A stretch of DNA of 64,000 nucleotides, taken from positions 68,262,001 to 68,326,000 of the forward strand of contig OZ320313.1 of the NCBI GenBank assembly GCA_976226885.1, in the 5' to 3' direction. The first letter of the stretch is position 1; each line of letters starts with the position of its first letter. The notes under the pieces were generated by a model. The model worked only from the letters and a program-made list of their open reading frames with translations, did not search any database and was not told the origin of the DNA. The position numbers and the translations under genes were made by a program. This DNA is from Iphione sp. A-MEVVRFRX5 (taxonomy: Eukaryota). Below are positions 3,541 to 63,653 of this stretch, piece by piece.

Positions 3541-3789
3541 AGACTTTACTTTAAGCAGATAGGTCTATAAATTTACATCTGCATAGCTAAGATCACATAC
3601 TGACAGGCTTGCACATATTAACTTGCATCACGTTGCCATAGAAAAATGTTTATATTTTATGTACAATGTCCCTGTGATCGACACCTATACAGAGATGTTG
3701 ACAGTCAAATCAGCTAATAGTTTAGCCGACCGTAATATGTGTTCTCATAAAACTACATATATACGCCACAAAAGATATCTTAATACTGA

Positions 3790-4124
3790 GGCCTAAACAA
3801 AAAATATCTGTGTTTCCGGTAACCCGACCGACCCTGCTTTTTGTCCTACTAGAACATTTTATTTTATTATGTTTTTGTTAATATCTTTGGCATGAATAAT
3901 GATAGAGACATAGGCTATATACCATTTTGCTCCTCAGATCATTAGCTTTCATTTGATATATGTTTCATTAATATCTGAGCAATAGAACATATATTACTGT
4001 ATACATATGTCACTTTAGGTGAAAATTAACATTGAAAAAAAATGAAAAAATAAAAAAACCCACCGACCTACCGACCCTCAATTTTTTAAGCATGTTACCG
4101 GAAACAGAACTTTTTTTTTAGGCC
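3790..4124. mobile_element. PIF/Harbinger-type MITE, family A copy 1 (335 bp)
   Basis: TIRs GGCCTAAA..AAAA..TCTG(TG)TTTCCGGTAAC at both ends; flanks TGA / TAA (one mismatch); internally homologous, in reverse orientation, to 33665-34001. Confidence 0.88.
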
Positions 4125-6289: not shown

Positions 6290-7657
6290 ATATATATATA
6301 TATATGTATGTATATATATATATTTATCTTATTTTGCTTTTGCTTATGCAGTGTTACCCTACCACACACACATCCAGACAGAGCCCAGGATGGTGGAGTA
6401 CGTTACCGATTTATCCTGCATTGCGTTTTTTCTTCCCGTCCAGTTGATAAGGCGTCCCATACAGACAGAGCCCAGTATGGGACACGTATTCCACCAAATT
6501 TTGCATTACCTATTCCCTATTACCCTTTTTTCTTTTTTATACCATTTTAATAGGGCCCGCTTCTGGAGGGTCATTACGTTACCTGGTAAGGAGTTCCATA
6601 TTAGACCCCCTGTATAAGAGACACTTCGTTTAAACCCTTCATAATTTGGTTTAATTATTTTATGGAGGGATTTCATATTATTCCTTGTTTGGGTTGCTTG
6701 TCCAATCATTGTTTCCCCCATACAGTGTCGGTGGTGCATTATTCTTAGCAGGCTTAGGTTACGTCTTGTTTCTAGAGGGGGTAGATTACATCTATTTCTG
6801 GCTGTAGCAGAGCGAATTGGAGACACCCATATTGTTCTCAGAGTTTTATTGTATAGCCTGGAGATTCTCTGGAAGTTTTGCGATTTGCTGTCGGTTAACA
6901 CACTGAGTCCGTATTCTATTATAGGTAGTATTAATGTCTTGACTAGGAGTATGCGGTCTTGTATTGGCAATAGTGATCTTAGTCTTTTAAGATATAATAG
7001 TTTGTGTCCGACCCTTCTGATTAGGTTGCTTGTATGCATGTTATATGTCAAGGTGCTATCTATCACTACACCAAGATATTTATATTCAGACACATTTTCC
7101 AGGTGCCCCGCTCCATATTTCACTGCTGGCGGATGCCTGATCGGGGACCTGTAGCGATACCAAACACATTTGCTTTTCTCTGGGTTTATTTGTATCTTGT
7201 TGGCAAGAGACCATTTAGCTATATTTTCGACGTCATATTGAATCCTTGTAAGCACCTCTTGTATATTGGCGCCTGAAGTCACAACCACCATGTCATCCGC
7301 ATACAGAGTTAGTTTCGAATATTTACATACAGATACTATGGGGTTTATGAATAAGGTGAAGAGTAGCGGCCCTAATATTGAGCCTTGGGGTACACCGCAA
7401 GTGATATTCAGTGGAGTTGAGGTATGCCCATTTGCTTTCGTCATTTGTCGTCGACCCGTCAGGTAATTTCGGAACCATGGGAGATAGTCAACTACTCCAA
7501 TGTCATACAATCTTTGTATTACTACATCATGGGAGATAGAATCAAACGCTTTTTTGAAATCAAAGAAAACGCTTGCTACATTTTGTCTGAGATTTAAGGC
7601 CATGTGTATCATGTCGGTTACCTTACTGATCGCCATCTCTGTAGAAAATCCTTTCCG
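6290..7657 (-). mobile_element. 5'-truncated non-LTR retrotransposon (CR1/L2-type LINE) with 3' UTR and (TA)n-type tail
   Basis: RT homology starts abruptly near 7657 (RKGFSTEMAI), the ORF stops at 6506, the 3' UTR holds two stem-loops, and a TA/TATG microsatellite tail lies at 6290-6323. No clear target-site duplication. Confidence 0.9.
6506..7636 (-). CDS. LINE ORF2 C-terminal fragment: reverse transcriptase (non-LTR type), 376 aa uninterrupted
   Basis: Motifs FFDFKKAFDSISH, GVPQGSILGPLLF, LYADD, KYLGVVID and C-terminal SVSYTGGLIWNSLP. No internal stops, so probably a young insertion. Confidence 0.95.
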   Translation of the reverse strand: MAISKVTDMIHMALNLRQNVASVFFDFKKAFDSISHDVVIQRLYDIGVVDYLPWFRNYLTGRRQMTKANGHTSTPLNITCGVPQGSILGPLLFTLFINPIVSVCKYSKLTLYADDMVVVTSGANIQEVLTRIQYDVENIAKWSLANKIQINPEKSKCVWYRYRSPIRHPPAVKYGAGHLENVSEYKYLGVVIDSTLTYNMHTSNLIRRVGHKLLYLKRLRSLLPIQDRILLVKTLILPIIEYGLSVLTDSKSQNFQRISRLYNKTLRTIWVSPIRSATARNRCNLPPLETRRNLSLLRIMHHRHCMGETMIGQATQTRNNMKSLHKIIKPNYEGFKRSVSYTGGLIWNSLPGNVMTLQKRALLKWYKKEKRVIGNR

Positions 7658-10600
7658 ATGATCTACCCAATCACCTATATACTAGCCGAAGAAATGCCCT
7701 TAATAGTTGTTCCAACATGTACTGCTATCTGCTGCAGCTTATATACATAATGAAGACATGAGATGAGGCAAATGTTTTATGTTCTGAAAGGGTTGCTTGA
7801 ATATTCACCTAGGTAAACATGTTCATATATATTTTATGCATAGGCTCGTCATTTACCAGTTTCAATGTAGCTGCTGCCTGGTTATATTCTTCGTAGATTG
7901 AACATAGGTGGCAGATCTGTAGGAGTAAACCATGTTCGACCTGCCCTCTATTGGTTTTAATGGAAAGTATGTTTACCCAATATTCAGCGAAGTTCAGTTG
8001 AACACATAAGCATTTAAAAACAGTACACCCATTACTACCTTGTGGCCTCCAGAATCTGTCTCAGTAAATAAGATTTCTTAGTAATACATTTAATGCTCGG
8101 TTTATAGATATCGAACATTATGTTATATAGATATGTATACTGGTTGGTGCCATCGCACTGGTAAAGGCAGATTCAGTATTTGCACGGTTAGTTTCTTATA
8201 AAAACATAATTGCAACTAAAGGAACAATTTTCCCCGCCTCCCTGTTTCGTTTATTAGCAGGCGAATTTAACCAAACTTCTTCTTTGCAGAAAAAGTAGCC
8301 TCATAGTGCCAAATACTTTCTTGTGAGAGACGCATCTTTCTCATTAAATGAAAATGGAGCTAAGCATGAAAAAATACTGAATTCATCTATTTCACCTTTT
8401 TCTGCTACTTGTTTACCGCGTTTTCCTTTAGCTGACCAAGATTTCTTTTAGTAGTGATTGCTTTAAATTATTTAAACATTCACTAGGAATATTGACATGA
8501 CAGAAACATGCGGCCATTTTACAAATCATGGGATTAACGCTCTTAAATTGACCTGTCCACGCCACATGAAGTAATGTATTTATTGGCTACAATCAGGAAC
8601 CAACCACGAACAGATGGCATTGATTCGATGAGAAAGGTAGTATTGACCGCCAAGATGGAGGCAGATTAACTGAAGATCAATAAATTATTCTCTTTTGCTT
8701 AAATGCTAGGTGGCCACTCTCGAAGAGATGGGATATGGAAATAAATGGTCCTTTTCTTCTCTGCAGAAGAATTAATGTAATATTTCTCACTCTGAAAAGG
8801 CTGCAAAGACACAATCTTCCCATTTAGTATACTGTTCGTGTCTTGAAATCGACAACACAAGAACAATCTCATTTGAAATGCACAAGGTAAAAATTGGTGA
8901 GCGTCTATGCCACTAGGTTGTAATAAGGTGAAGGCGACCATTTGGGAGTCGATGGCCGATTTCTTTTTGTTCCCCTTCAGACACGATCGTGTCTCACGCC
9001 CAATTATCATACAGGATTACATGTTATTTCCATGATGGATTGGCGGCTTTCCTGAAAGGCAGATTAAAACCCATGAAGGGTGTGGCCACATCAGCCGCTA
9101 CTCCTCGTCTTTTAGCGCCGTCTGCTGATGGATTGTTCACAGGCGATAAAGAACAAAAGTGAAAAAATAGGTCTCACGCAGAGCACAGTGCTTTCACCGT
9201 TATCTTCTAGACACGTGATTTAGTGGCCACTACCAGCGGATCATGGGCGGCTTACGGTGACGATAATCTATGCAGATTGTCGGGTGTTCGCACTTTGATT
9301 TGCCTTTTCTCAAGGCGTACTGTTGTTCAGATTTTGCGAGCAGGTTTCTTACATTGCGCGGTTTCCCTCATTTCCAAAAACCTTAAACCAATTATAAGGA
9401 ATCCTTCATCATTTACTTACTTTTCAAAAGACAAAAAAAATATATTTACGTTGATGTAAATTACGTTCATTGCCTGCTTTGAGAGAACCATACACACTAC
9501 ACATATGTTTGCGTTAAGCTTTAATTTCTAATATTTTCTGGACTTTGTCGAATAATTTTATTACGCGTCTCCTGCATGAAGGATCCGTTTGGAAGCAAAC
9601 ATGATCTAATTTAATCAAAAACAGTCTGCGTTTTAATATTTTAGCAATAGATGATTTTATTTTCACCCAATGAAGAAAATCACATTGTTTCCAAGTGAAG
9701 CAAAATTCTTAATATGTTTTAAAAACTATACATTCTCTTTCCACACCCTATAAGGGTGTTCACTGTCATTATAATCGAAGCAAACCAAGTAAACACAAAA
9801 TGCGAACAAATCGCAGTTGCTTTAATGCATTTTATTTGAAGAGATTTGAGATGCTTTCAGTTTTTGGTCGGCGGACTGTTGTCAACTAATCTCTACGTCT
9901 TTATATTGCCCGTGGGGACATGAGGAGCTTAATCTACACTGGCCACATTTGGTTCTGAGTTTGCTCAGTCAAATAATAACATTGCAATGTCATATGGTGA
10001 GTCCAAATTTCACACAGGTCTAGGCTGGTTTGCCTCATGTATACGTGTCATTGCATTAAATATATTCCCAATTATCACCAATTATTCTCGTCATTTTACC
10101 TATTTTGTCAGTGTAGAGATATCTATCAATCTGGTAATTCGTCAAAAATGGTCACCACTAAATAGACGTCCACAACAAACACTGTCAAGGTCAGCCTACT
10201 GAAATCATTATCTATAAGATACTGACGGTTCTTTTGCAAAAAAGAAATACGCCCAATATGAAAGAAGGAGCACCCCCCACTTGCTGTTATAATGATATTT
10301 CCTATTCGAAAAAAACAAGTGTTTCTTTGCGTACATTTTGTATGATTGAAGTGATGGTGACCTTCAATGAGGTAGCTGGCAAATGACATCTCTCAAATAT
10401 ATACACTTGCAAGCCACATACATTTATATTGTTTGCCTTTTTCATGCACATCTCGCAAAGAGTCGACACTATAACATGATTGTATTATCATGTGTAATAC
10501 TCCAAACACGTGTACGTAACGATAACACCCCAGATACCTTCCAATTGAGATCAACACTTAATCAACTGTGCATGGACAAAGCTCTTCGTGAAGACTCTGG

Positions 10601-18700: not shown

Positions 18701-21700
18701 AAGAGGAAGAGGGAATGCTTTCTAGGAAAGAAAAAACGGCACGAGGTTTTAAATATTAGCGCACATAACACCCGTGAAGATAAAACGAGATGGAAGACGT
18801 TTGCTTATACCAATATTAGAAACAGATTTCAGCAATATGCTTTCTACTATATTGCTTTCTGACGATTTCCTGCACTATAACATGAGCGAAACCAGACAGT
18901 TTTGAAAATGAGAAAGTAAGATTTACCTTCCCCGTGTATCTTTCAAAAATGCCAGTGCATAGTTGGTATTTCTGTAGAATTACATGTCCTGTTCTGTTTG
19001 AACTTTTTAAGGCTCAGTACTTCATGATAATTGGCCAGAATTCAAGATAAAAAAGGACATTTATCGAGCTGGACGCACTTTTATAGATATACAAAAACAA
19101 CATTTCTAATTTTAAATAGTCCAAATTCTGCATGTTGTGGCGCCTATAAATGAAAGGGCTTTCTCAATTGTTTCTGATGTCCAAAAACAGTATCCAGTGA
19201 ACACGCTGAAACACGACATGCTCAATAATTACTGTCCTTCATTCCATTCCTTTGTGTTTATTATCAAAGGTAACTTTATTTAATACTTTATCCTAAAAAG
19301 ACTTAATGTAATGCGCTCGCCGGCACGCGACTTGCATATTTTTTTCCAAGGTACAAATTGGTGTCGCTGTGTGAAAATTTAGTAATCAGTGAAGTTTTTA
19401 TTAAAACCTCAAGAACTGAAGTTTAAGGCTGTTAACAAGCAATACCACGTGGAATGATCGGTACACTTACACTGACAAATGATACATGTAATTCTGGTGA
19501 TTGTCGATGATAAATATGATTCTCAAAACTCGATTCATACGTCTCTATCTGTTAAACATGAAGAACAATAAAGCACAAATTGAATGCACTCCAACCAATT
19601 GCCATTATGGTGGAGGCGAGCATGAAAGACTTCACACGATTTGGTACCTTTTGAATCGTTGTTAATGTGTAATGAAATCTGCTGCTTCAAAATTGGTGTA
19701 AACATTAATTATCACTGTAACTGGGTTATTTTAAGTTATCTAAAAAGCACAACCAAGGCAGAGAATGTAATATACTATTGGATGCGATATACGATGAGGG
19801 AATGCCGACCTCTACTCGTTATCTGTGGGGTACCGCCATAGAGAGCATAGATAGCTATGAATATCTTAGTATACGTCTAGGTAATATATTATCGACAACA
19901 TCCCATAATAGAAAGCACTTAAAACGCTCCTCTAAATTGTATTACTTTCGGCACACGTTGGGGTTTTTTTAGACAGAAAACGTCTCTCCTTATCGTGTAT
20001 TCAGTTCTCTATATATATAGATATGCATAGAGAGAAACCATTAATGGAAGATGCAGGAGCTGAGGAAAATAACACAACTAAAGCTATTCATGCCCAATCC
20101 TGCCCATGCTTCCAGAAACGGATCCCATGCGCAGTAAATATGCATGACGAGCAGAAAGCTAGCAGTGTTAAAGCCGGAAGAGATTTTATGAAGGGAAGAT
20201 ATAACCGGCTACGTGCCAGGCCCATTGTATGCTAAAGGGCAAGTGAATGATGACCAACAACTCCTCAGAGCAACGTCAGTTATGGCGGTTTATTCCCAAA
20301 CAGGTTATGGGTCTTTCTAAAGGGGGGTGGAAGGAAATGCGTGTGTATTCATTTTCAAACTAACAATGATTATTCATAGCACAGGACAACCTGCACTTGT
20401 TGCGCCATCTGGAATGAAAGCTAGTGAGAGGCATGTTGGCATGACGCACTGACAGCATCTCCTGTAGGGATCGCTTATCATCATTCCTCGACCGCTTTCC
20501 ACGAGACCTTGTGGATGCTGCCCATCCAATTTGCCGTTATGTATTTTTTCTTCCATATGCGAATATGCGAGTGGGGCATTATTGTGGTTTCTTCATTTAG
20601 CCGTACAATGTCCCATGCATGGGCACTACAATACCATGCCTGACAAGGATCAGTATTACCGTAACCATTATTTCATTGTACGTATTCTACTTACTAACTA
20701 ATTGTCATCGTAGTTTTGGCACCGAGTGCTCAGCTCCATTTCAGATGCCCTGCCTGCATTTTTGTCGCCTGGTTTCTTTTCATTCTTGATTTGCTCTCAT
20801 AGTAATATACTTTGTTACAATATAAAATCTTCATATGCTTTACCGTGTATTGTGCTATCATTTCAGTATATATAAAGAGTAAAAATGTACCAATAGTTAT
20901 TGCAAACTAAAACAGTGTCACTCGAAAGGGTGCAGTGAATGTGGTGAGGTACACAAGTACAACAACCTTTTCACATGTCTCTAAAAGTGTTAACGTGACC
21001 AATGGTTGTGCCCAGTTGGGTTACTCACGGAGACTCGATGTTCTTTGTTAAGGTCGAGTGCACTGAGAATGATGAGTGTCCTGTCCCTGGTCTGACGTAC
21101 GTGCTCGTCCGGGCTGTCCAGACGCGCCCGCAGCAAGTAGTGCACCCGTCCTTTACACACATCCTGTGATTCAAACGATGACGACAGCGAGTCGGGCAGT
21201 CGGAACTGGAAGTTGTATTCGTGTGCGCCTGCCGTCAGCACTGAATTCTCCCCGGGTCGCCGCTGACCGGGCTCTGCAAAGAAAAAATCTGTAGAGGATT
21301 TCTTCGGAAAATGACATCGCCTAGACATGCATTGGTAACTGCTTGCAAAGGAAACTTACACATTATGTGGAACCATAATGGATGATGATACGAAACTCTC
21401 CCCCCAAAAAACGATGAGCTGCACAAATACAGAAAATACGGAACGAACAGAAATGTTCTGTATTTATCACACGAAACTGCATACGTCGTGTGGAGGGGGG
21501 AAATGCCAAAGGCTTCATCAGGTAACGAGACGTAATGGCAGAATGTGTCTCTTCTTATTCGATATAGACCACTCTCAAATAATCATTCGACACTTATATA
21601 TATCCTGTTCATTCTGTATGTACACATAAACATGGAGTATTATTTCCACAATATAAACACATTTTATCCTCACAAATATTTGTGTAGTGCGTTTGAATAC

Positions 21701-24700
21701 AGAGTGTGCCTTTCCTGATCCTATACGGAACAAGAAAGGATTGACACGTGAGCATGTTATTTAGTTTGTAGGCTCTTAGGAGAAAGGTGGGGGATATCTT
21801 GCCCTTACGCCACTGATTCCTAATTATCATACTCTTACAAACAGCGACCATCCTTTAGCTGCTGGCACTGGTTTAAAATCTGATCCGATTCGCTCTGAGC
21901 ATCTCCTCAGCGGCGCCAAATGAGCGGCTCACACAGCATATTCTCATCTCTCATTAGCTTCGGGCCTTCTTATTCGACCATTGTCGCTGAGCATCACTGC
22001 TGCTGATTTTGCATGGGCTCCTGAGAGCACGACCGGCTCTGCTTGTCTGCCCCCCCCCCCACCACCAATCCCCACCCCCTACACCACCCACCCACTCATT
22101 TATCTCCACAGGCGTGCAACCCGGATGGCTTCTCGTCGAGACTTTGTGGGGCACCTGAGGGAATTGGGTTATCACCTGGATCCCTTCCCAAATCGGCCAA
22201 AGTTATTGGGCTTCGTGCCTGCGCAACAGCCTTCGAGGCGCATTACGGCCGGTGTTACAGCAAACGTTTAGGAAGGGAAGGCTGCTGTAAACCTATTCGC
22301 ATCGGAAACAGCACGGCTAAAGTAACACCACGAAAGTACGTAAAAACCAAACATGGGGCCATTGAGGTGCCGCAAAAGTAAAAGACTAATCCAGCGAAAC
22401 TATTAAACTTTTCCCGATTCACATTCTTTTGACGCGCCGTTAATGTGTCTGGTACATGCAATATTTATTTTACTGTTTAGCCAAGGATTCTCATTAAAAG
22501 AAGGGAATAAGGCTACAGTGATAACATATACAGACTCGGAAAACAATAATTGGTATATTAATCAAAATAAATGAAAGCCTGACACCATTTGGACGAGGGT
22601 GGCACATTTGCATTATTTAATCATGTGAATGGTGAAAAATGCTCCCAAATTCTATACGTCGTGCATAAGGTGATTCTTCAGCTTTTGACGAGTGAATTGA
22701 TAGACTTCAATAGAATGACTGCTGAAATCTGAGTATGTTTTCCCTCTGTATTTTAGTAAAAGAAATAAAATATGAAATACTAGCAGCCTATTGGTGGCAG
22801 TCAAGCAGAATGGACACAATATAACAAATAATTGATACATGAGCCATCTAGTGAAATTGAATTTATTGGGAACGGCAGCCAGTAGTGATGACTTCGAATC
22901 ATTTTGCAAACAATAGTGCGTCCAGTTTGGAACACAGACTAGATAACATATAGTAAATCCCTCATTACGTAGGACACAGTATGGCCTACATTAAGTTACT
23001 CATCCCATCTGCCAGAAAAATATTTAATAGCACTGCCAGCAAAGCGAACAACACCAACCCACCATCAACAATTGCCTCCAACAAACGCAAGGCAATCGAA
23101 ATTGAACCGATGGGACAAGAAGCATACTAAACCACTTCGCCCCCTAACAAAGTTAGTGAAAAGCCAGGCACAATCAAGTAGGAAACACACGACTGTCTAC
23201 CCTAAAGACCGTTACAAGACCTCATCTACTTGCCCGAGTGAAGACACCGACAGCAGTGATGACGAATGCAGTAACGTGACAGAAAGGAAAACAACAACTG
23301 CTCCTGCCATCACCCCAGTACCTACCAACAACGTTCCAGTCCCTGACAACAACGACAAACCGAAATGGACTCTTAAACAACTGACCAAGGACTTAACAAC
23401 CACACCAGAGGCCAGCAATGCAGAGAAGGAAGAAGGAGAGCTGAGCAACACTGATAAGGAAGAGGAGAAATCCCAGAAAGCATCATCCGAAGACCGTGAA
23501 GAACATAAGAGATCCCACCAGTACAGGGAGGGATCTGGTATAAAGCATGAACAAACTGACACTCAGTAGAGAGGAAAACCTAAAAGCGAAGTTTTTGTCC
23601 AGTAGGCACTAATGATCAGATAGACACCATCAGTAACAATGGCAGGGACACCCCCGAGGAAAGCATCCCCAAGAGTGAAATACTATTTGATCTATACACA
23701 ATAGTTCGGAAAGTTAACCAGAATGTAGGCATAGCCATGTCTCAAGTAATGTATAATGAAGGACTAATCAGCTGGCAACAGTATACCAAATTTGACCAGT
23801 GAGTAGACACAGCCAGTCGCACAGACTCTACCCTATATAATCATATTTATATGCCAGAAAAAAATTTTTGCACTGTTATTCTAGTTACACCTGTTGAGAG
23901 CCTACATTTGCCAAGCTATTCCATATAAGGTATTGACCCATTTGCATCTAATTAAAGTGATCATTTTTACCAATATGCTTAACCATAATTCACCTATTGC
24001 CAATCCTCCTGATGAAGACCAACTGAGGTCGAAACGTTGAGTGTAACCACAATCAGAAATAAAAGCCAACCTTACCAATTGGATCTGGGACTCAGGGTTT
24101 TGATTGTTAATTAACTTCTACAAAGTATTTAAAAGGTAGTCGTATATTACCTAACCGTGATACTACTACAGTTTTAAGAACAATGCTTGAAACCTATGGT
24201 ACTCGCTACGTCAGGAACTAGTATATCAACGTTCAGAACATAATCCGCACGTTGTTGCCCTGCAAAATTCAGTACACAGATGTCTATGATAGCAACGCGC
24301 CAGCAGAGGGAAATTAAACCATATTATAGTGCTACAGCAGGCGTTCATACAAGGGGCAAGCACTCCCAAGGGCATGCCGCGTTCCCCTTGGACGTCTAGA
24401 GATGTTGCCCTGTTAGCCGTAGATCACGATCTACTGAATACGTCTATAAACGCTAATCGTATGAAACAAACTGTTCGGAAAGACTGACGGGGCACGTCCG
24501 CTGTAGGTTCAGCAGTATCGTTACCCTACAAGGCAATATCATAGAAGGGCCAATACGAGGAGAATGGTATGGTTCGATAAAGTTAGGTGAGCCAGCCAGT
24601 GCATGTATACACTCTAGATTTCAGTGGAAACCTGGCCGGACGAGACTAGAAGCGTCTCACCGACAATACTCGTGAAAGGCTGAAATGGCAATCATTCAGC

Positions 24701-27700: not shown

Positions 27701-29219
27701 CAGTTCCCCACAGGATTTTATATAGTGAGCAAGAGCCTGCTTTATTAGCAGTAATACCTTCTATAAATGTCGCTACACATCGGATAAATGTGTCTAGTGC
27801 TTTTATAACCCTAAATGTGCCTCATTACATTGTTGCGTGACTAGAAAGACTATTACAGTAGTAGATTCACTCTAGGATTTTACGATACTTGAAGAAGAGC
27901 TTGGCTTATGGCTTGCAGGACACCAAATGTACAATGAGCGTTCAAATTAAGAGGAAGATAACATCCACGTTTAGAATATCAACGCTATACTAATCTAACT
28001 TATTAAACAGCCTCTGATAATATTACGATATACACTGTCGAAAGTCCACAGCAGCTTAGTTGAATAGCAACGTGCATGTGGCGTAATGACGTACTGCCCG
28101 TGTTGTAAGCTCATTTACGAACCCATTCCATGGAGTCAAGTTCGCATGAAAGACGCATTGTCCGTAACATCAGCTCTCTCTATTCATGTACGCCATACAT
28201 TGTGACTGATGATTACATTTGCGTTTCTGTAGTGCGACTGAGATATAATAGTATCAAAATATACTGGCAGAACAGCGATTATTGTAGGCGTCTTTGTGGA
28301 CGCATTCTAATAAACATAAGACGTAACATATTTTATGTACATGTATATTCAGAATTGGCCAGCTAGATAGCATCTACTTCTCTTAAAATACTATAACTGA
28401 TATCTTGGAGACAACGCCATAATGACCCAGGTTTCCCTAGCCCAGTGCACATGCAATGTAGAGGTTTTTCGAACGGGAAGCAACCAGCATTTCCACCGCA
28501 GTAGTTGTCAGGGAACAAAACAGTACGGCCGGATTCTCTAAATGACTCTTAACGGTAGGTGGCGCCAGAGAGCCTTGTAGACGAAATCGAACTGGGTTTT
28601 GTAGGGATCTCGTTTCCCCTGGCTGTAGCCCGTCTCCGCTGTATTATTCACCTGGACCCGTCATACAAAGGGCATAAAAAATAGGCACGTACACTACCGT
28701 CGACTGTATTTGATTGTGGCCTATAAGGAACTCCATGCAACTTTAATGTGGTCCGCACCCTGCCGACGTGTTTTTGCTTGTTTGAGGCCTTAGTCTTGCA
28801 GATAACCTGCGCAAAAGCGCCTGCTTCTTTTGCGGTAATATATGGCGGTGGTGCCAGAAGCAGATCAACCATGCACAATTAAAATATGTTTCACGAAAAC
28901 CTTTCCTTTGCTCGTAACCTGTGAGCCGATGGAACTACAAGGTGGAAATCTAGAGAAGAATGTAACACGAAGTAGGAATATACTATGGATGTATGCGTTT
29001 ATATACATATAAATAAGAACTAGTATTTAATTATATCATAAGGTTTCCCTGAAGGCCTGATGCATAATGGTGAGCATTCCATGTGAAAATTGGACCTACC
29101 TCTTCCCCACAAGGTTATGCAGTCTTTCATGTAGATCTCATATTCAAAGTTGGTCTTGTGACTGCCTGGTTTGTCGGCCCATGACACATCAGCTTGTCCC
29201 AGTACCCAGAGGTATATGC
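12552..29219 (-). CDS. ARRDC: Alpha-arrestin / arrestin domain-containing protein, partial gene model with 6 coding exons (29219-29100, 21273-21029, 16531-16349, 14228-14049, 13741-13633, 12706-12552); first coding exon not identified
   Basis: Spliced translation has arrestin-N motifs (GIYLWVLGQADVSW; LTAGAHEYNFQFRLPDSLSSSFE; GRVHYLLRARLD) and arrestin-C motifs (CCCCCKSGPISCALRLDRTGYVPGEDI; IPPLPPSRLDGCNLIDIDY; EVTVPIIIGTIPL). All five introns are GT-AG with matching phases (1,0,0,0,1). 992 nt of CDS ending at TGA 12554-12552. Symbol is family level only. Confidence 0.93.
13633..13741 (-). CDS. ARRDC-like coding exon: VGVMPAGVSNPIEVTVPIIIGTIPLAVILPPGMLAK
   Basis: Acceptor catag|GTC, donor AAG|gtcagt, 109 nt, phase 0 to 1. 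Contains the hallmark PI.IGT.PL end of the arrestin-C domain. Not present in the ORF track. Confidence 0.92.
14049..14228 (-). CDS. ARRDC-like coding exon: LVHFHAAGVSKTCC...IPPLPPSRLDGCNLIDIDYVIT
   Basis: Acceptor ttctttcag|TTA, donor ACG|gtaagt, 180 nt, phase 0 to 0. Confidence 0.94.
16349..16531 (-). CDS. ARRDC-like coding exon: ESVQMRRDKYVCCCCCKSGPISCALRLDRTGYVPGEDINLDAEIQNFSRKDITHSYVTMQQ
   Basis: Acceptor tttgtgtag|GAG, donor CAG|gtttgt, 183 nt, phase 0 to 0. Start of the arrestin-C domain. Confidence 0.95.
17139..17300 (+). pseudogene. Short decayed LINE fragment
   Basis: VFRAFVLPYIDQGLAFL resembles LVKTLILPIIEYGLSVL of the 6506-7636 ORF. Confidence 0.3.
19778..19972 (+). pseudogene. 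Decayed LINE fragment (post-RT thumb region)
   Basis: GTAIESIDSYEYLSIRLGNILSTTSH...KLYYF resembles E.V..YKYLG+.+D..L...H. Confidence 0.45.
21029..21273 (-). CDS. ARRDC-like coding exon: EPGQRRPGENSVLTAGAHEYNFQF...LDLNKEHRVS
   Basis: Acceptor ttctttgcag|AG, donor TCC|gtgagt, 245 nt, phase 1 to 0. Lies within ORF 20990-21328. Confidence 0.95.
23072..24110 (+). mobile_element. Probable Penelope-like / retrozyme-like element relic (broken ORF, then hammerhead, then AATAAA); boundaries approximate
   Basis: The hammerhead architecture is characteristic of PLE pseudo-LTRs; AATAAAA about 20 nt downstream; 165-aa low-complexity ORF upstream. No RT or GIY-YIG motif recognised. Confidence 0.45.
24006..24041 (+). 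ncRNA. Minimal type I hammerhead ribozyme (Penelope-like element type)
   Basis: CTC-CTGATGA-A-GACC-AACTGA-GGTC-GAAA-C-GTT-GAG: conserved core CUGAUGA and GAAA, 4-bp stem II, 3-bp stem I (CTC/GAG), stem III reduced to palindromic ACGT, GUU triplet with predicted cleavage after 24038. Confidence 0.8.
24687..24960 (+). pseudogene. Decayed LINE RT fragment in an ARRDC intron
   Basis: GVFMVLRKAFNSISYTAVLEKL (D+.KAFD motif) followed by TCGVPQGSFPGPLTFIIFI. Confidence 0.7.
25315..25632. mobile_element. PIF/Harbinger-type MITE, family A copy 3 (diverged), in an ARRDC intron
   Basis: TTA flanks on both sides; right end GGGTTACCAAAAATACAGATATATTTTTAGTGGGCC; shares AGGGTCGGTAGGTA and CATTATTCATTC(A/T)GAAG with copy 2. 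Confidence 0.75.
29100..29219 (-). CDS. ARRDC-like coding exon (second coding exon by homology): GIYLWVLGQADVSWADKPGSHKTNFEYEIYMKDCITLWGR
   Basis: Acceptor tttgcag|G, donor AG|gtaggt, 120 nt, phase 1 to 1. Matches the arrestin-N G.A.V.W and E.Y motifs. Confidence 0.88.
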
Positions 29220-33559: not shown

Positions 33560-34260
33560 GTAAAAATAAACCAGACTGCACATTGATTTGTACAAAAAAG
33601 GATTTCTTTTCTAGATGATTACATAATTGGTTGAAGACCTCCCTCTCTTATATTTTTGACATTAGGCCTAAAAAAAAGTTCTGTGTTTCAGGTAACCAGG
33701 CAAAAAAAGAAAGGGTCGGTCGGTAGGTAGTACTTTTTTGTATTTTTCTTTTTTTTTAATGTTAATTCAGGTTGGAGGGAGGAAATGTATATGGTTATAT
33801 CACTTCTACTGCTTAGATTTTAAGAAAACTTATATGAAATGAAAGCTAATTGCCTAAGGAGTAATTTGGTGTAAAGAATATGTCTCTATCATTATTCATT
33901 CTGAAGTTATTTAGAAAACAATGAAAAAATAAAAAGTTGCAATTGGCTCTATTGCAGAGTCGGTCTGGTTACCGGAAACACAGGTATTTTTTGTTTAGGC
34001 CTTAGCGGAAGAAGGGATATTGGACGATAATTGTTCAATTGTGTTCTATCGCCACCTTTGTGCAGCAGTTGTTAAATGCATATGTTCATAAGATGATGTA
34101 GATCTTGAATACTTAGTCTCATAGACATTTCAAAGTTTTAAGTGTTAAGACCCGCTATACTGAATGACTTATACATGTTGATACCTTTGACAATTGCTAG
34201 AAGGTCGTCAATCTCACAGAGATGTAGTTCAAATTGAGGAACATCATTCCTGTTGAGGGT
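33560..34260 (-). pseudogene. Decayed LINE RT N-terminal fragment split by MITE family A copy 2
   Basis: Removing the MITE and one TAA gives KGGDRTQLNNYRPISLLPLMSKI*EREVFNQLCNHLEKK, the classic NYRPISLL..SK++E LINE motif. Confidence 0.8.
33665..34001. mobile_element. PIF/Harbinger-type MITE, family A copy 2 (337 bp)
   Basis: TTA|GGCCTAAAAAAAAGTTCTGTGTTTCAGGTAACC ... GGTTACCGGAAACACAGGTATTTTTTGTTTAGGCC|TTA; perfect TTA target duplication; interrupts an old LINE. Confidence 0.92.
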
Positions 34261-61740: not shown

Positions 61741-63148
61741 CTAGCTACTGCAAAACTGTATCCATATGTACATTTATTTATCCATTCCCTGCGGAGTACC
61801 ATATATTATTTACTCAGCAGAACTGGTCATTAAATGTTTTTCCGAATCCGCTGCTAAGGAGCAGCACTGGACGTAAAAAAGAGGTTTTCGAATAACTGAT
61901 CCATACTTGTGAGTAAGACTAATCTAAGCTTATGTTTTGAGAGTCGTCATCATAAATGACCTTTGCCATTATCACACTAAATTTGTGAAATGAGGAAAGA
62001 ATATAAAAGGGTTCCTGTTTACGACTTTTTAACGTTCTTGTTTAGATAATTATGTAAATTGTACTTTTCTATGTATAACTGAAATATATTTTCAATAATC
62101 ACGCAATTTATTTGTCCACCAATCTCAACAAAGACACGTATAGAGGTATAACACTTTTTAAGGAATATACCACCGTTGCTACACTACGTCCAACCTAACA
62201 AACTAAACATTGCCGCATTATCAGCGTTATAATTTACATCCAAAGAGTAATATGATGAAGAACCAAAGCACCGGCCGTAGGGGCAAGGTGCCTCTGCGTG
62301 ATGGCGCCAAGTGGTTCGGTGTGGGCTTCTCCTACGTCCTATGGCGAGATAAGGAGGCGTATTTGGCGCCGCCAATGAGGCGCCAGTGAGATAACCACAG
62401 GGGAGCCGGTAGGAGGACAGACCTTGGAGAGATGGCCCCGACGCCGCTCATCTATCTCTATGCTGAGAAGATAGTGGTAACGGGGCAGATGTCCGGGTCC
62501 AGGGCCACGACCCGGGGCCACCCCGGCTACCTGTGTATATGCATGATGGTATAATGAGAGCGTCCATATCTTTGTCGGTTTCTGTATGTTATTTATACAT
62601 GTAAGTAAATTAATTTAGGTATCTCTGCTGGAGGGGGAAATTTAACCCTTAAACGTCCGAAGGATCTCTGAACCTTCCATTGACCTTTTGTTTAGTAGTC
62701 TGCATGTCTTACATCGATATAATAAATTGAATGCTCCGGCTTCGGGATGAAAATAAAACACACTGGTCAGTGGTCACTCTACTTTGAAGAGTTTTAGCTA
62801 AAGCCTCCGCATAGCATGCCAACAGTTCCCATAAAGGCTGCTCGGTCACTTAGGGCGTGTGTTGTTCGAAGTATTAAGCAGATTTGTTGAGTAATATCGT
62901 GTATATTTTGTTGCTGGAGTTTGTGCCCGAAGGCAAAGGCCAGAAGTACCTTATCCCTTGGGATCTGGTTCAAACTGAGGAGATATTAGGAATGTTGTAT
63001 CCTCTCGGCCGGTTTTTAGGTCCATTTAGTCAGTGGATTATCCTAGTCCACTGACTAAATATTTAGTCAGTGTTCACAGGACGCCAAATCATTGCTCTTT
63101 GCGCTGGCTAACTAGTCCCTGTAGCTCAGTCGGTTATCCAGTGCAAAT

Positions 63149-63410
63149 ATGGCCGCCCATGTACTGCACCGAAGGCACAGGCAGCATGAAGAAGATGAAG
63201 AGGAATATATCTACAGAAGGCCGACCGATCCTCTGGATGTTTTATCGGAATACACAGACAAAGAATTCATTGAACGTTTTCGTTTTCGGCCGCAGACGGT
63301 TGTAGATCTGACAAATTTCTTTCTGCGTCCGTTGTTCAAGGCTTCTCGTAGGGGCTTGCCCATTTCGCCTATCTTTCAAATGTGCATTCTCTTACGTTTT
63401 CTAGCATCAG
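63149..63410 (+). CDS. PIF/Harbinger (HARBI1-like) DDE transposase, exon 1
   Basis: MAAHVL...EFIERFRFRPQTVVDL...ISPIFQMCILLRFLASG matches the Harbinger F..RFR and LRF.ATG motifs; donor CAG|gtgggt, phase 1. Confidence 0.85.
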
Positions 63411-63653
63411 GTGGGTTCAACTATGATATAAAAAGTTTTATATATCTCTTTTTGATATTTCAAAAGTTAAGTTTACAGTCTGACAGTAGTAGTAACGGTT
63501 AGCCACATATTTTATCGGCATAAGACTGATTGATATTCCCATTATCTTAAGATATGTATAGGCTGTGTGGTTAAAGTGAGATGAACAAATTTCAATTTTG
63601 TCCTCTAACGTTTTCGATAAATATTAATGGTATTTGGAATTTCCTTGATGAAG

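Follow-up and report, generated by a model that had tools for sequence, protein, structure and literature searches.

A window of 64,000 nucleotides from the genome of Iphione sp. A-MEVVRFRX5 (contig OZ320313.1, positions 68,262,001 to 68,326,000 of the forward strand) was analysed; coordinates below are those of this window unless stated otherwise. On the plus strand it carries an insertion of about 1.1 kb, a truncated Penelope-like element (PLE) with one pseudo-long terminal repeat (pLTR), and in this repeat lies a minimal hammerhead ribozyme (min-HHR) at 24006–24041. Exons of an alpha-arrestin (ARRDC-like) gene lie on the opposite strand. As the best explanation overall, it is very probable that the motif is a min-HHR in the pLTR of a decayed, 5'-truncated PLE, antisense in a predicted ARRDC intron. 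The features of the insertion are as follows.

23021–23027, plus strand: left copy of the target-site duplication, TATTTAA (7 bp)
23028–24125, plus strand: whole insertion, a 5'-truncated Neptune/Nematis-type PLE (remnant of open reading frame (ORF) 3 and one pLTR), about 72% identical over 1055 nt to the related locus L036
23028–23802, plus strand: decayed 3' part of the accessory ORF3, predicted exon 2, from homology to ORF3 of relatives
23387–23407, plus strand: conserved DLxxS(S/P) motif ahead of EEGEL
23429–23443, plus strand: EEGEL, fitting the ARS2-recruitment consensus (E/D)(D/E)GE(L/I/V)
23840–23853, plus strand: conserved ATCATATTxATATG directly 5' of the pLTR boundary
23858–24125, plus strand: 3' pLTR of the PLE copy, beginning at the AAAATTTT run, as do the 5' pLTRs of full-length relatives
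24006–24041, plus strand: minimal type I hammerhead, from direct reading, descriptor, covariation and covariance model
24058–24063, plus strand: AATAAA, a poly(A)-signal-like hexamer, 20 nt past the predicted cut
24095–24102, plus strand: GU-rich element after AATAAA
24126–24132, plus strand: right copy of the target-site duplication, TATTTAA (7 bp)

The hammerhead motif

Stem I is formed by CTC (24006–24008) and GAG (24039–24041), 3 bp in this copy, and stem II by GACC (24017–24020) and GGTC (24027–24030), 4 bp. Together they close a complete CUGANGA...GAAA...NUH core, consisting of CTGATGA (24009–24015), an extra A (24016), GAAA (24031–24034), ACGT (24034–24037) and T24038 as H17. The palindromic ACGU replaces stem III, and the cut is predicted after 24038, following GUU. 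All core bases and stems that a preliminary description of this DNA had claimed for a type I hammerhead were thus read directly. Its assignment of the extra A and the palindromic ACGU to the minimal form known from PLE pLTRs also held: the motif shares with the min-HHRs described in 2014 the full core, an extra base between positions 9 and 10.1, G10.1-C11.1, a palindromic 15.2-16.2 and a short stem I (Cervera and De la Pena 2014, PMC4209133).

The min-HHR descriptor gave a single match in the window and 0 in 300 dinucleotide-matched simulated windows. Genome-wide copies, which the preliminary description had proposed to look for, were found: the exact pattern occurs 313 times in the 1.18-Gb genome, against 0 for the reversed control, the window copy itself being single and non-tandem. 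Among 30 descriptor-selected copies, pairing was kept in 92.9% of cells with 44 two-sided changes (equalled in 0 of 500 shuffles), a result that is support rather than a probability, as these copies share ancestry and had been selected by their fold, which inflates the test. Sliding the alignment as a control lowered pairing to 19–45%, and across genomic hammerhead families a two-sided change was seen at 6 of 8 stem pairs. A covariance model trained on 24 copies, none of them from the window's subfamily, gave one window match (E 3.7e-13; runner-up E 1.2). The extra A was present in all 52 hammerhead loci compared and CG (G10.1-C11.1) in 47, the loci having been selected in part by a pattern that already contains these bases.

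A point against the fold is that structure prediction for the monomer mispairs the core, with a stability no better than that of shuffles (z −0.93). Cofolding gave only the predicted AACGUU duplex. The Infernal search that had been suggested as a check failed, Rfam 15 giving no match at the gathering score and none at E≤10 within 23700–24400, though the motif is real by the custom model, covariation and pattern counts. A chance match, to which the length of only 36 nt, the missing Rfam match and the ordinary folding energy might point, is scarcely credible and is refuted by the genome counts (313 vs 0 in the control), the simulations (0/300), the covariation and the fixed position in pLTRs. 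The stretch 24006–24041 is confirmed as a real hammerhead fold with covarying stems.

The window insertion

The window copy is a dead, 5'-truncated PLE of about 1.1 kb with a single pLTR. Its ORF3 remnant encodes a basic patch resembling a nuclear localization signal (NLS), an acidic region and a C-terminal three-helix domain, and is broken by two frameshifts and a stop at 23567–23569. Downstream of the motif, AATAAA or ATTAAA was present in 51 of 52 hammerhead loci. For the 270 nt around the motif, 40 places scored among 75 candidates, several as pairs 4.5–5.3 kb apart; the upstream sequence 22350–23060 had no other genome match among the 1 candidate scored. The conserved ATCATATTxATATG at 23840–23853 we take to be initiator/TATA-like. 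The 11 nt before the left duplication (23010–23020), TGCCAGAAAAA, are identical to the pLTR boundary of the element at 23852–23862; in this one case the identity may reflect a preference of the endonuclease for its own pLTR junction, or integration microhomology.

The preliminary description had left open a PLE- or a retrozyme-type insertion. The coding remnant, the pLTR and the target duplication establish the PLE and dispose of the retrozyme. A non-LTR retrozyme, that is a short non-coding tandem repeat, would share this hammerhead type, which is common to retrozymes and PLE pLTRs (10.64898/2026.07.22.740005). It is nevertheless most improbable here and is refuted by coding homology: the copy is single, non-tandem and fused to 770 nt of ORF3 homology that reaches elements with a reverse transcriptase (RT) elsewhere.

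Organization of the element family

Full-length relatives measure 4.7–5.6 kb and have the order pLTR, ORF1, RT/GIY-YIG endonuclease (overlapping, in the −1 frame), ORF3, pLTR, an unusual arrangement that the preliminary description did not mention. Their flanking pLTRs are 94–100% identical within a pair, the hammerhead is present in both, and most elements have target duplications of 5–15 bp. The window copy lacks the RT, and RT features were read in the full-length relatives only. These gave RVT_1 at E 4e-12 and GIY-YIG at E 7e-4, the latter below the Pfam cut-off. The CCHH type of GIY-YIG was read directly, from two Cys located between its GIY and YIG segments and from a His further downstream, and a CX2-5CxxC linker is present between RT and endonuclease (EN). 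RT, linker, C-terminal CCHH GIY-YIG, HHR-bearing direct pLTRs and variable duplications are as in Neptune/Nematis EN+ PLEs (PMC8557442). The single ORF of EN+ PLEs was not found, ORF1 being split off and ORF3 being extra. The family would therefore be filed as a variant of the Neptune/Nematis-type EN+ PLEs.

All 12 examined 3' ends fall 81–95 nt past the hammerhead cut. In 12/12 elements (L031–L036, L040–L045) the 5' pLTRs start within the same A-run/T-run, which follows a conserved ATCATATT..CATATG at a distance of 10–25 nt; this shared position may be a fixed nick site or the place where the RNA starts. The leader after the 5' pLTR contains one or two conserved GCATCC-N(5-12)-GGATCC hairpins, candidates for an RT-binding signal, which are kept also in elements without RT. 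Repeated TGACCTTTGACC motifs upstream of the hammerhead in the pLTRs of L035, L040, L043, L057, L064 and L067 resemble, we assume, nuclear-receptor direct repeats.

Overlap of ORF1 and the RT frame

Among 150 scored genomic ORF1 matches, 149 had an open frame of at most 277 aa and one was fused. The RT lies in the −1 frame relative to ORF1 at 26 of 28 junctions. An intron as the cause of the frame change was considered and rejected, no conserved GT-AG being present at the junction. In 19 representatives less than 80% alike, an ATG in the RT frame occurs at one column in every case, with an invariant A followed by TGC; at another conserved Cys column the same A-TGC arrangement is found in 7/19. 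Stops in the −1 frame number 85 in 1900 codons before this internal ATG and 0 in 589 after it. Position −3 holds a pyrimidine in all 19 ORF1 start contexts (19/19), and a purine in 17/19 contexts of the RT AUG. Ahead of the RT start, 2244 codons of ORF1 contain no internal Met, compared with 113 in 5700 RT codons, and the 270-nt leaders contain 7 ATGs where 64 are expected. Of the RT homologues found in other samples, 7 of the best 8 begin at the equivalent Met, a count biased by gene callers. The split of ORF1 and RT recurs in 4 of 46 metagenome loci with enough upstream sequence.

These features suggest that both proteins are made from one RNA by leaky scanning: ORF1 would be translated from its weak AUG and the RT-endonuclease from the AUG about 375 nt downstream, a course that we hold to be rather likely. 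Two observations argue against it. Across 19 elements the interval from the first start to the second still contains 42 ATGs where 80 are expected, so that scanning would not be clean, and the invariant run AGAAA might serve for frameshifting. According to the alternative, the RT-endonuclease is made as an ORF1 fusion by −1 frameshifting at AGA-AAA-A and the internal AUG is secondary. The AGAAA run is indeed invariant where conservation shifts from frame 0 to −1, a natural fused homologue (P0014) joins the frames at AGAAA, and a frameshifted ORF1 with a pseudoknot is depicted for some PLEs (PMC8557442). However, a canonical slippery heptamer is not present in all copies, and frameshifting leaves unexplained the invariant A-TGC (19/19 vs 7/19), the 31 stop-free codons after it and the contrast in AUG context. 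On balance the frameshift is unlikely. Literature searches of openly accessible papers returned none on leaky scanning in PLEs, and none that combined PLEs with ribosomal frameshifting and a pseudoknot.

The accessory gene ORF3

The spacer that follows the endonuclease stop is CpG-rich and 144–217 nt long, and in it TGACG/CGTCA occurs 23.5 times per kb compared with 0.94 in the RT (13 elements); we take these to be CRE/ATF sites. The first frame of ORF3 encodes two C2H2 fingers (Pfam zf-C2H2_4, E 6e-8), and the second, in the +1 frame, has 230–300 codons and ends in a conserved domain with three predicted helices (pLDDT 79). A GTAAGTA between the fingers and a TTTYCAG about 200 nt further on are invariant in 18/18 aligned copies (of 20, two having no finger match), synonymous sites being otherwise variable. 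With the predicted splice, an open frame of over 200 codons results for 24 of the 27 copies, and in 2 of the 3 misses the script took an earlier acceptor-like site. Copies without RT gave pN 0.29 vs pS 0.77–0.83 on both fingers (0.29 and 0.77 on the intronic finger), values that are uncorrected and near saturation; the finger within the intron thus appears itself to be constrained. Quite probably, then, ORF3 would have its own CRE-rich promoter and give a two-finger protein from unspliced and a one-finger, long acidic protein from spliced RNA.

The C-terminal domain had no structural match at Z≥5, and its SHOCT_2 matches were below the cut-off; the long-frame alignment had no homologue at E≤0.001 among 7202 candidates of 151–734 aa. 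With the finger frame the matches were swamped by generic C2H2 proteins, and the C-terminal profile had no match downstream of metagenome PLEs. By eye, the ORF3 starts of the family showed nothing like a histone H3 beginning. A downstream C2H2 ORF is present in 13 of those 38 metagenome PLE loci, out of 79 fetched, whose downstream sequence reaches 600 nt or more. From these sequences an accessory gene appears to be widespread, and the ARS2 motif seems so far confined to the lineage of the Iphione genome.

The downstream zinc-finger ORFs of the distant PLEs L167, L171, L185 and L165 carry (V/F/T)IDLT or IIIID words, which presumably resemble SUMO-interacting motifs. At L136 (G000:C13:31213000-31222999) a 2.6-kb tandem array, 99.9% identical, includes part of the C-terminal domain encoded by ORF3; neither a hammerhead nor a finger was matched in it.

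Elements without RT

L044 and L045 are 2.4-kb units of pLTR, ORF3 and pLTR, with target duplications and without ORF1 or RT. Of 12 further regions chosen by their ORF3 matches, 10 have the same layout. Their pLTRs are 94–99.7% identical, neither RT nor ORF1 was matched in them, and the ARS2 motif is present in 9 of these 10 units. In the tree the ten RT-less rows lie on one side of a branch with support 89/93, which is below the starred level. They appear to form a diverse RT-less group that moves with ORF3 alone between its pLTRs. Three of these ten copies, a point against the overall reading, carry a stop in the first finger exon; an intact ORF3 is therefore not required in every mobile copy.

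The ARS2-recruitment motif in ORF3

The long frame of ORF3 is conserved only at the basic patch, DLxxS(S/P), EEGE(I/L) and the C-terminal domain. In 18 representatives less than 60% alike, drawn from 66 ORF3 matches of which 40 have long frames, [ED][ED]GE[ILV] occurs 15 times compared with 0.04 expected from shuffles, and its flanks do not align among the motif-bearing sequences. The ARS2-recruitment motif is (E/D)(D/E)GE(L/I/V), in which Leu is tolerated and for which 13 residues are enough; ZFC3H1/Red1, FLASH, NCBP3, PHAX, ZC3H18 and ZC3H4 compete through it for the ARS2 zinc finger (10.1101/2022.01.19.476877; 10.1101/2023.07.25.550453). These effectors carry the motif in acidic regions of low conservation within zinc-finger proteins, and so does ORF3; the effectors are host genes with measured binding, whereas ORF3 is transposon-encoded and its binding a prediction. 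The host genome has an ARS2 zinc-finger exon with a lysine-rich strand. We assume that this strand corresponds to residues numbered in human ARS2.

We infer from the motif alone that the spliced ORF3 protein binds the ARS2 zinc finger via EEGE(I/L), which we regard as moderately probable. More tentatively, the protein could mimic host ARS2 effectors, occupy the ARS2 surface that PAXT, NEXT and Restrictor use, and shield the element RNA against decay in the nucleus or premature termination, a benefit that would keep the RT-less lineage; this is possible rather than probable. Several results speak against an ARS2 role: the motif is missing in 3 of the 18 representatives, is absent from the single-ORF lineage L095/L141, and was found in 0 of the 38 metagenome PLE loci with sufficient downstream sequence, including the 13 with a C2H2 ORF.

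ORF3 could instead be a DNA-binding activator or a chromatin anti-silencing factor, with EEGE(I/L) as part of the acidic region or the site of another partner. The two conserved C2H2 fingers, the basic NLS-like patch and the acidic, Ser-rich tracts are what such a protein would have, and a DLxLSSD-like motif, found in 4 of the 13 metagenome C2H2 ORFs, is more widely spread than the ARS2 motif (4/13 vs 0/38 elsewhere). The exact five-residue consensus, kept in 15/18 despite non-aligning flanks, is harder to accommodate. We consider this alternative a serious one, if somewhat short of probable; the activator and ARS2 roles are compatible. Our proposal remains that ORF3 would be a nuclear accessory factor engaging ARS2.

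Proposed mechanism

Single min-HHRs of metazoan PLE pLTRs showed no cleavage, and cleavage of dimers was weak (PMC4209133). In an active element the two pLTR hammerheads would likely pair via ACGU, or be helped by the RT protein, and the RNA would be cut after GUU. In Anolis Poseidon, the one PLE tested biochemically, cleavage by the HHR required the element protein, yet insertion in vitro did not require the HHR; the HHR mutants left insertion unaffected and no RNA ends were seen at the cut site, which counts against the proposed cleavage (PMC11167929). By the same work, RT begins synthesis within the RNA, close to the pLTR. By our model reverse transcription would begin just 5' of the GCATCC...GGATCC hairpin after the 5' pLTR, and the window copy would have formed when synthesis stopped about 1.1 kb in. 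That spliced ORF3 steers the nuclear RNA of the element away from PAXT/NEXT-type decay or early termination is possible rather than probable.

Relation to known systems

The hammerhead itself is already known and adds one example to the class described in 2014. As there, many variable families exist, mostly as single copies on truncated elements; apart from the stem II of 4 bp, compared with 7–8 bp in the Schistosoma families, nothing of substance differs (PMC4209133). The interest is carried by the element family and not by the intronic motif. EN+ PLEs are taught as single-ORF elements, and the family described here would combine a two-start ORF1/RT overlap with a conserved accessory gene. 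Canonical EN+ PLEs have one ORF (PMC8557442), whereas here ORF1 is overlapped by an RT ORF in the −1 frame whose AUG is conserved, and the endonuclease is separated from the 3' pLTR by an accessory C2H2 gene with an intron. A killifish Neptune consensus also has a short ORF ahead of the RT ORF, but the two do not overlap (PMC12602865). Rotifer Penelope elements have sequence between the ORF and the 3' pLTR, and intron-bearing genes were moved between pLTRs in trans; these spacers are unrelated captured host DNA, whereas ORF3 is orthologous across subfamilies, appears to be under purifying selection and has its own RT-less group (PMC3846280). In Terminons, accessory ORFs occur in EN-deficient giants (PMC6431247).

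Literature searches of openly accessible main texts gave no three-frame layout and no RT-less ORF3 group, though Repbase reports and Arkhipova 2006 may describe these ORFs; by titles and abstracts, no C2H2 or zinc-finger accessory ORF is reported for Penelope/Neptune elements; and no paper with an ARS2 motif in a transposon was found among the same main texts, those that link EEGEI with ARS2 concerning host proteins. If EEGE(I/L) binds ARS2, a retrotransposon would engage the hub at which nascent RNAs are assigned to maturation or to decay, and this, if true, would give insight into how PLEs keep an intron-containing, hammerhead-bearing nuclear RNA intact.

The host arrestin gene

One arrestin exon and one candidate exon flank the insertion.

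21029–21273, minus strand: host alpha-arrestin (ARRDC-like) exon, downstream of the insertion (Pfam Arrestin_N, E 8e-11; splice sites)
29100–29219, minus strand: candidate host arrestin exon, upstream of the insertion (top match of a 5-sequence profile, E 0.061)

The upstream exon (29219–29100) has AG/GT splice sites and phase 1, compatible with the downstream exon; Pfam makes no call on it, and as an ARRDC exon it is weakly supported, which counts against the intronic location. The intron 29099–21274 is thus a prediction. Of the location given in the preliminary description, the antisense orientation stands, the Arrestin_N exon being on the minus strand, and the intron is predicted from the E 0.061 exon. 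Further arrestin exons on this strand, with weaker evidence, are located around 16.4 and 14.1 kb, and ARRDC exon 1 was not found in the arrestin exon search.

The ARRDC pre-mRNA would contain the reverse complement of the motif, which is no hammerhead, and the AATAAA of the element is likewise on the opposite strand; most likely, the hammerhead has no effect on the host transcript. No second copy with which it could pair was found in the window by the descriptor or the covariance model, so plus-strand cleavage would need a trans partner or an element protein, published single min-HHRs having shown no activity by themselves (PMC4209133; PMC11167929). It could be argued that the host has kept the intronic hammerhead to cut a plus-strand antisense transcript regulating ARRDC, given an intact core with two intact stems beside a broken ORF3 remnant, and given that promoter-like and poly(A)-like signals are retained in the pLTR. 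Yet the window has no partner copy, single min-HHRs were inactive in vitro (PMC4209133), at least 313 such motifs exist across the genome, and with three lesions in a remnant of about 770 nt an intact 36-mer is, by our estimate, unsurprising. Retention by the host is therefore very unlikely.

Other features of the window and of related loci

A fragment of a LINE-type reverse transcriptase (391 aa, RVT_1 E 1e-26) lies at 6506–7681 on the minus strand. An ORF at 63125–63502 (plus strand) without Pfam match reads, we presume, as the start of a Harbinger/PIF transposase. The segments 3786–4006 and 33785–34005 form a 221-nt inverted pair, 78% complementary, which is probably a dispersed repeat. Outside the window, a 742-aa frame at L039 (3–2228, plus strand) with a weak Baculo_F (envelope-like) match below the cut-off adjoins a truncated PLE, and at L141 broken frames with a DTDS motif, downstream of the PLE, presumably resemble a Polinton-like family B DNA polymerase.

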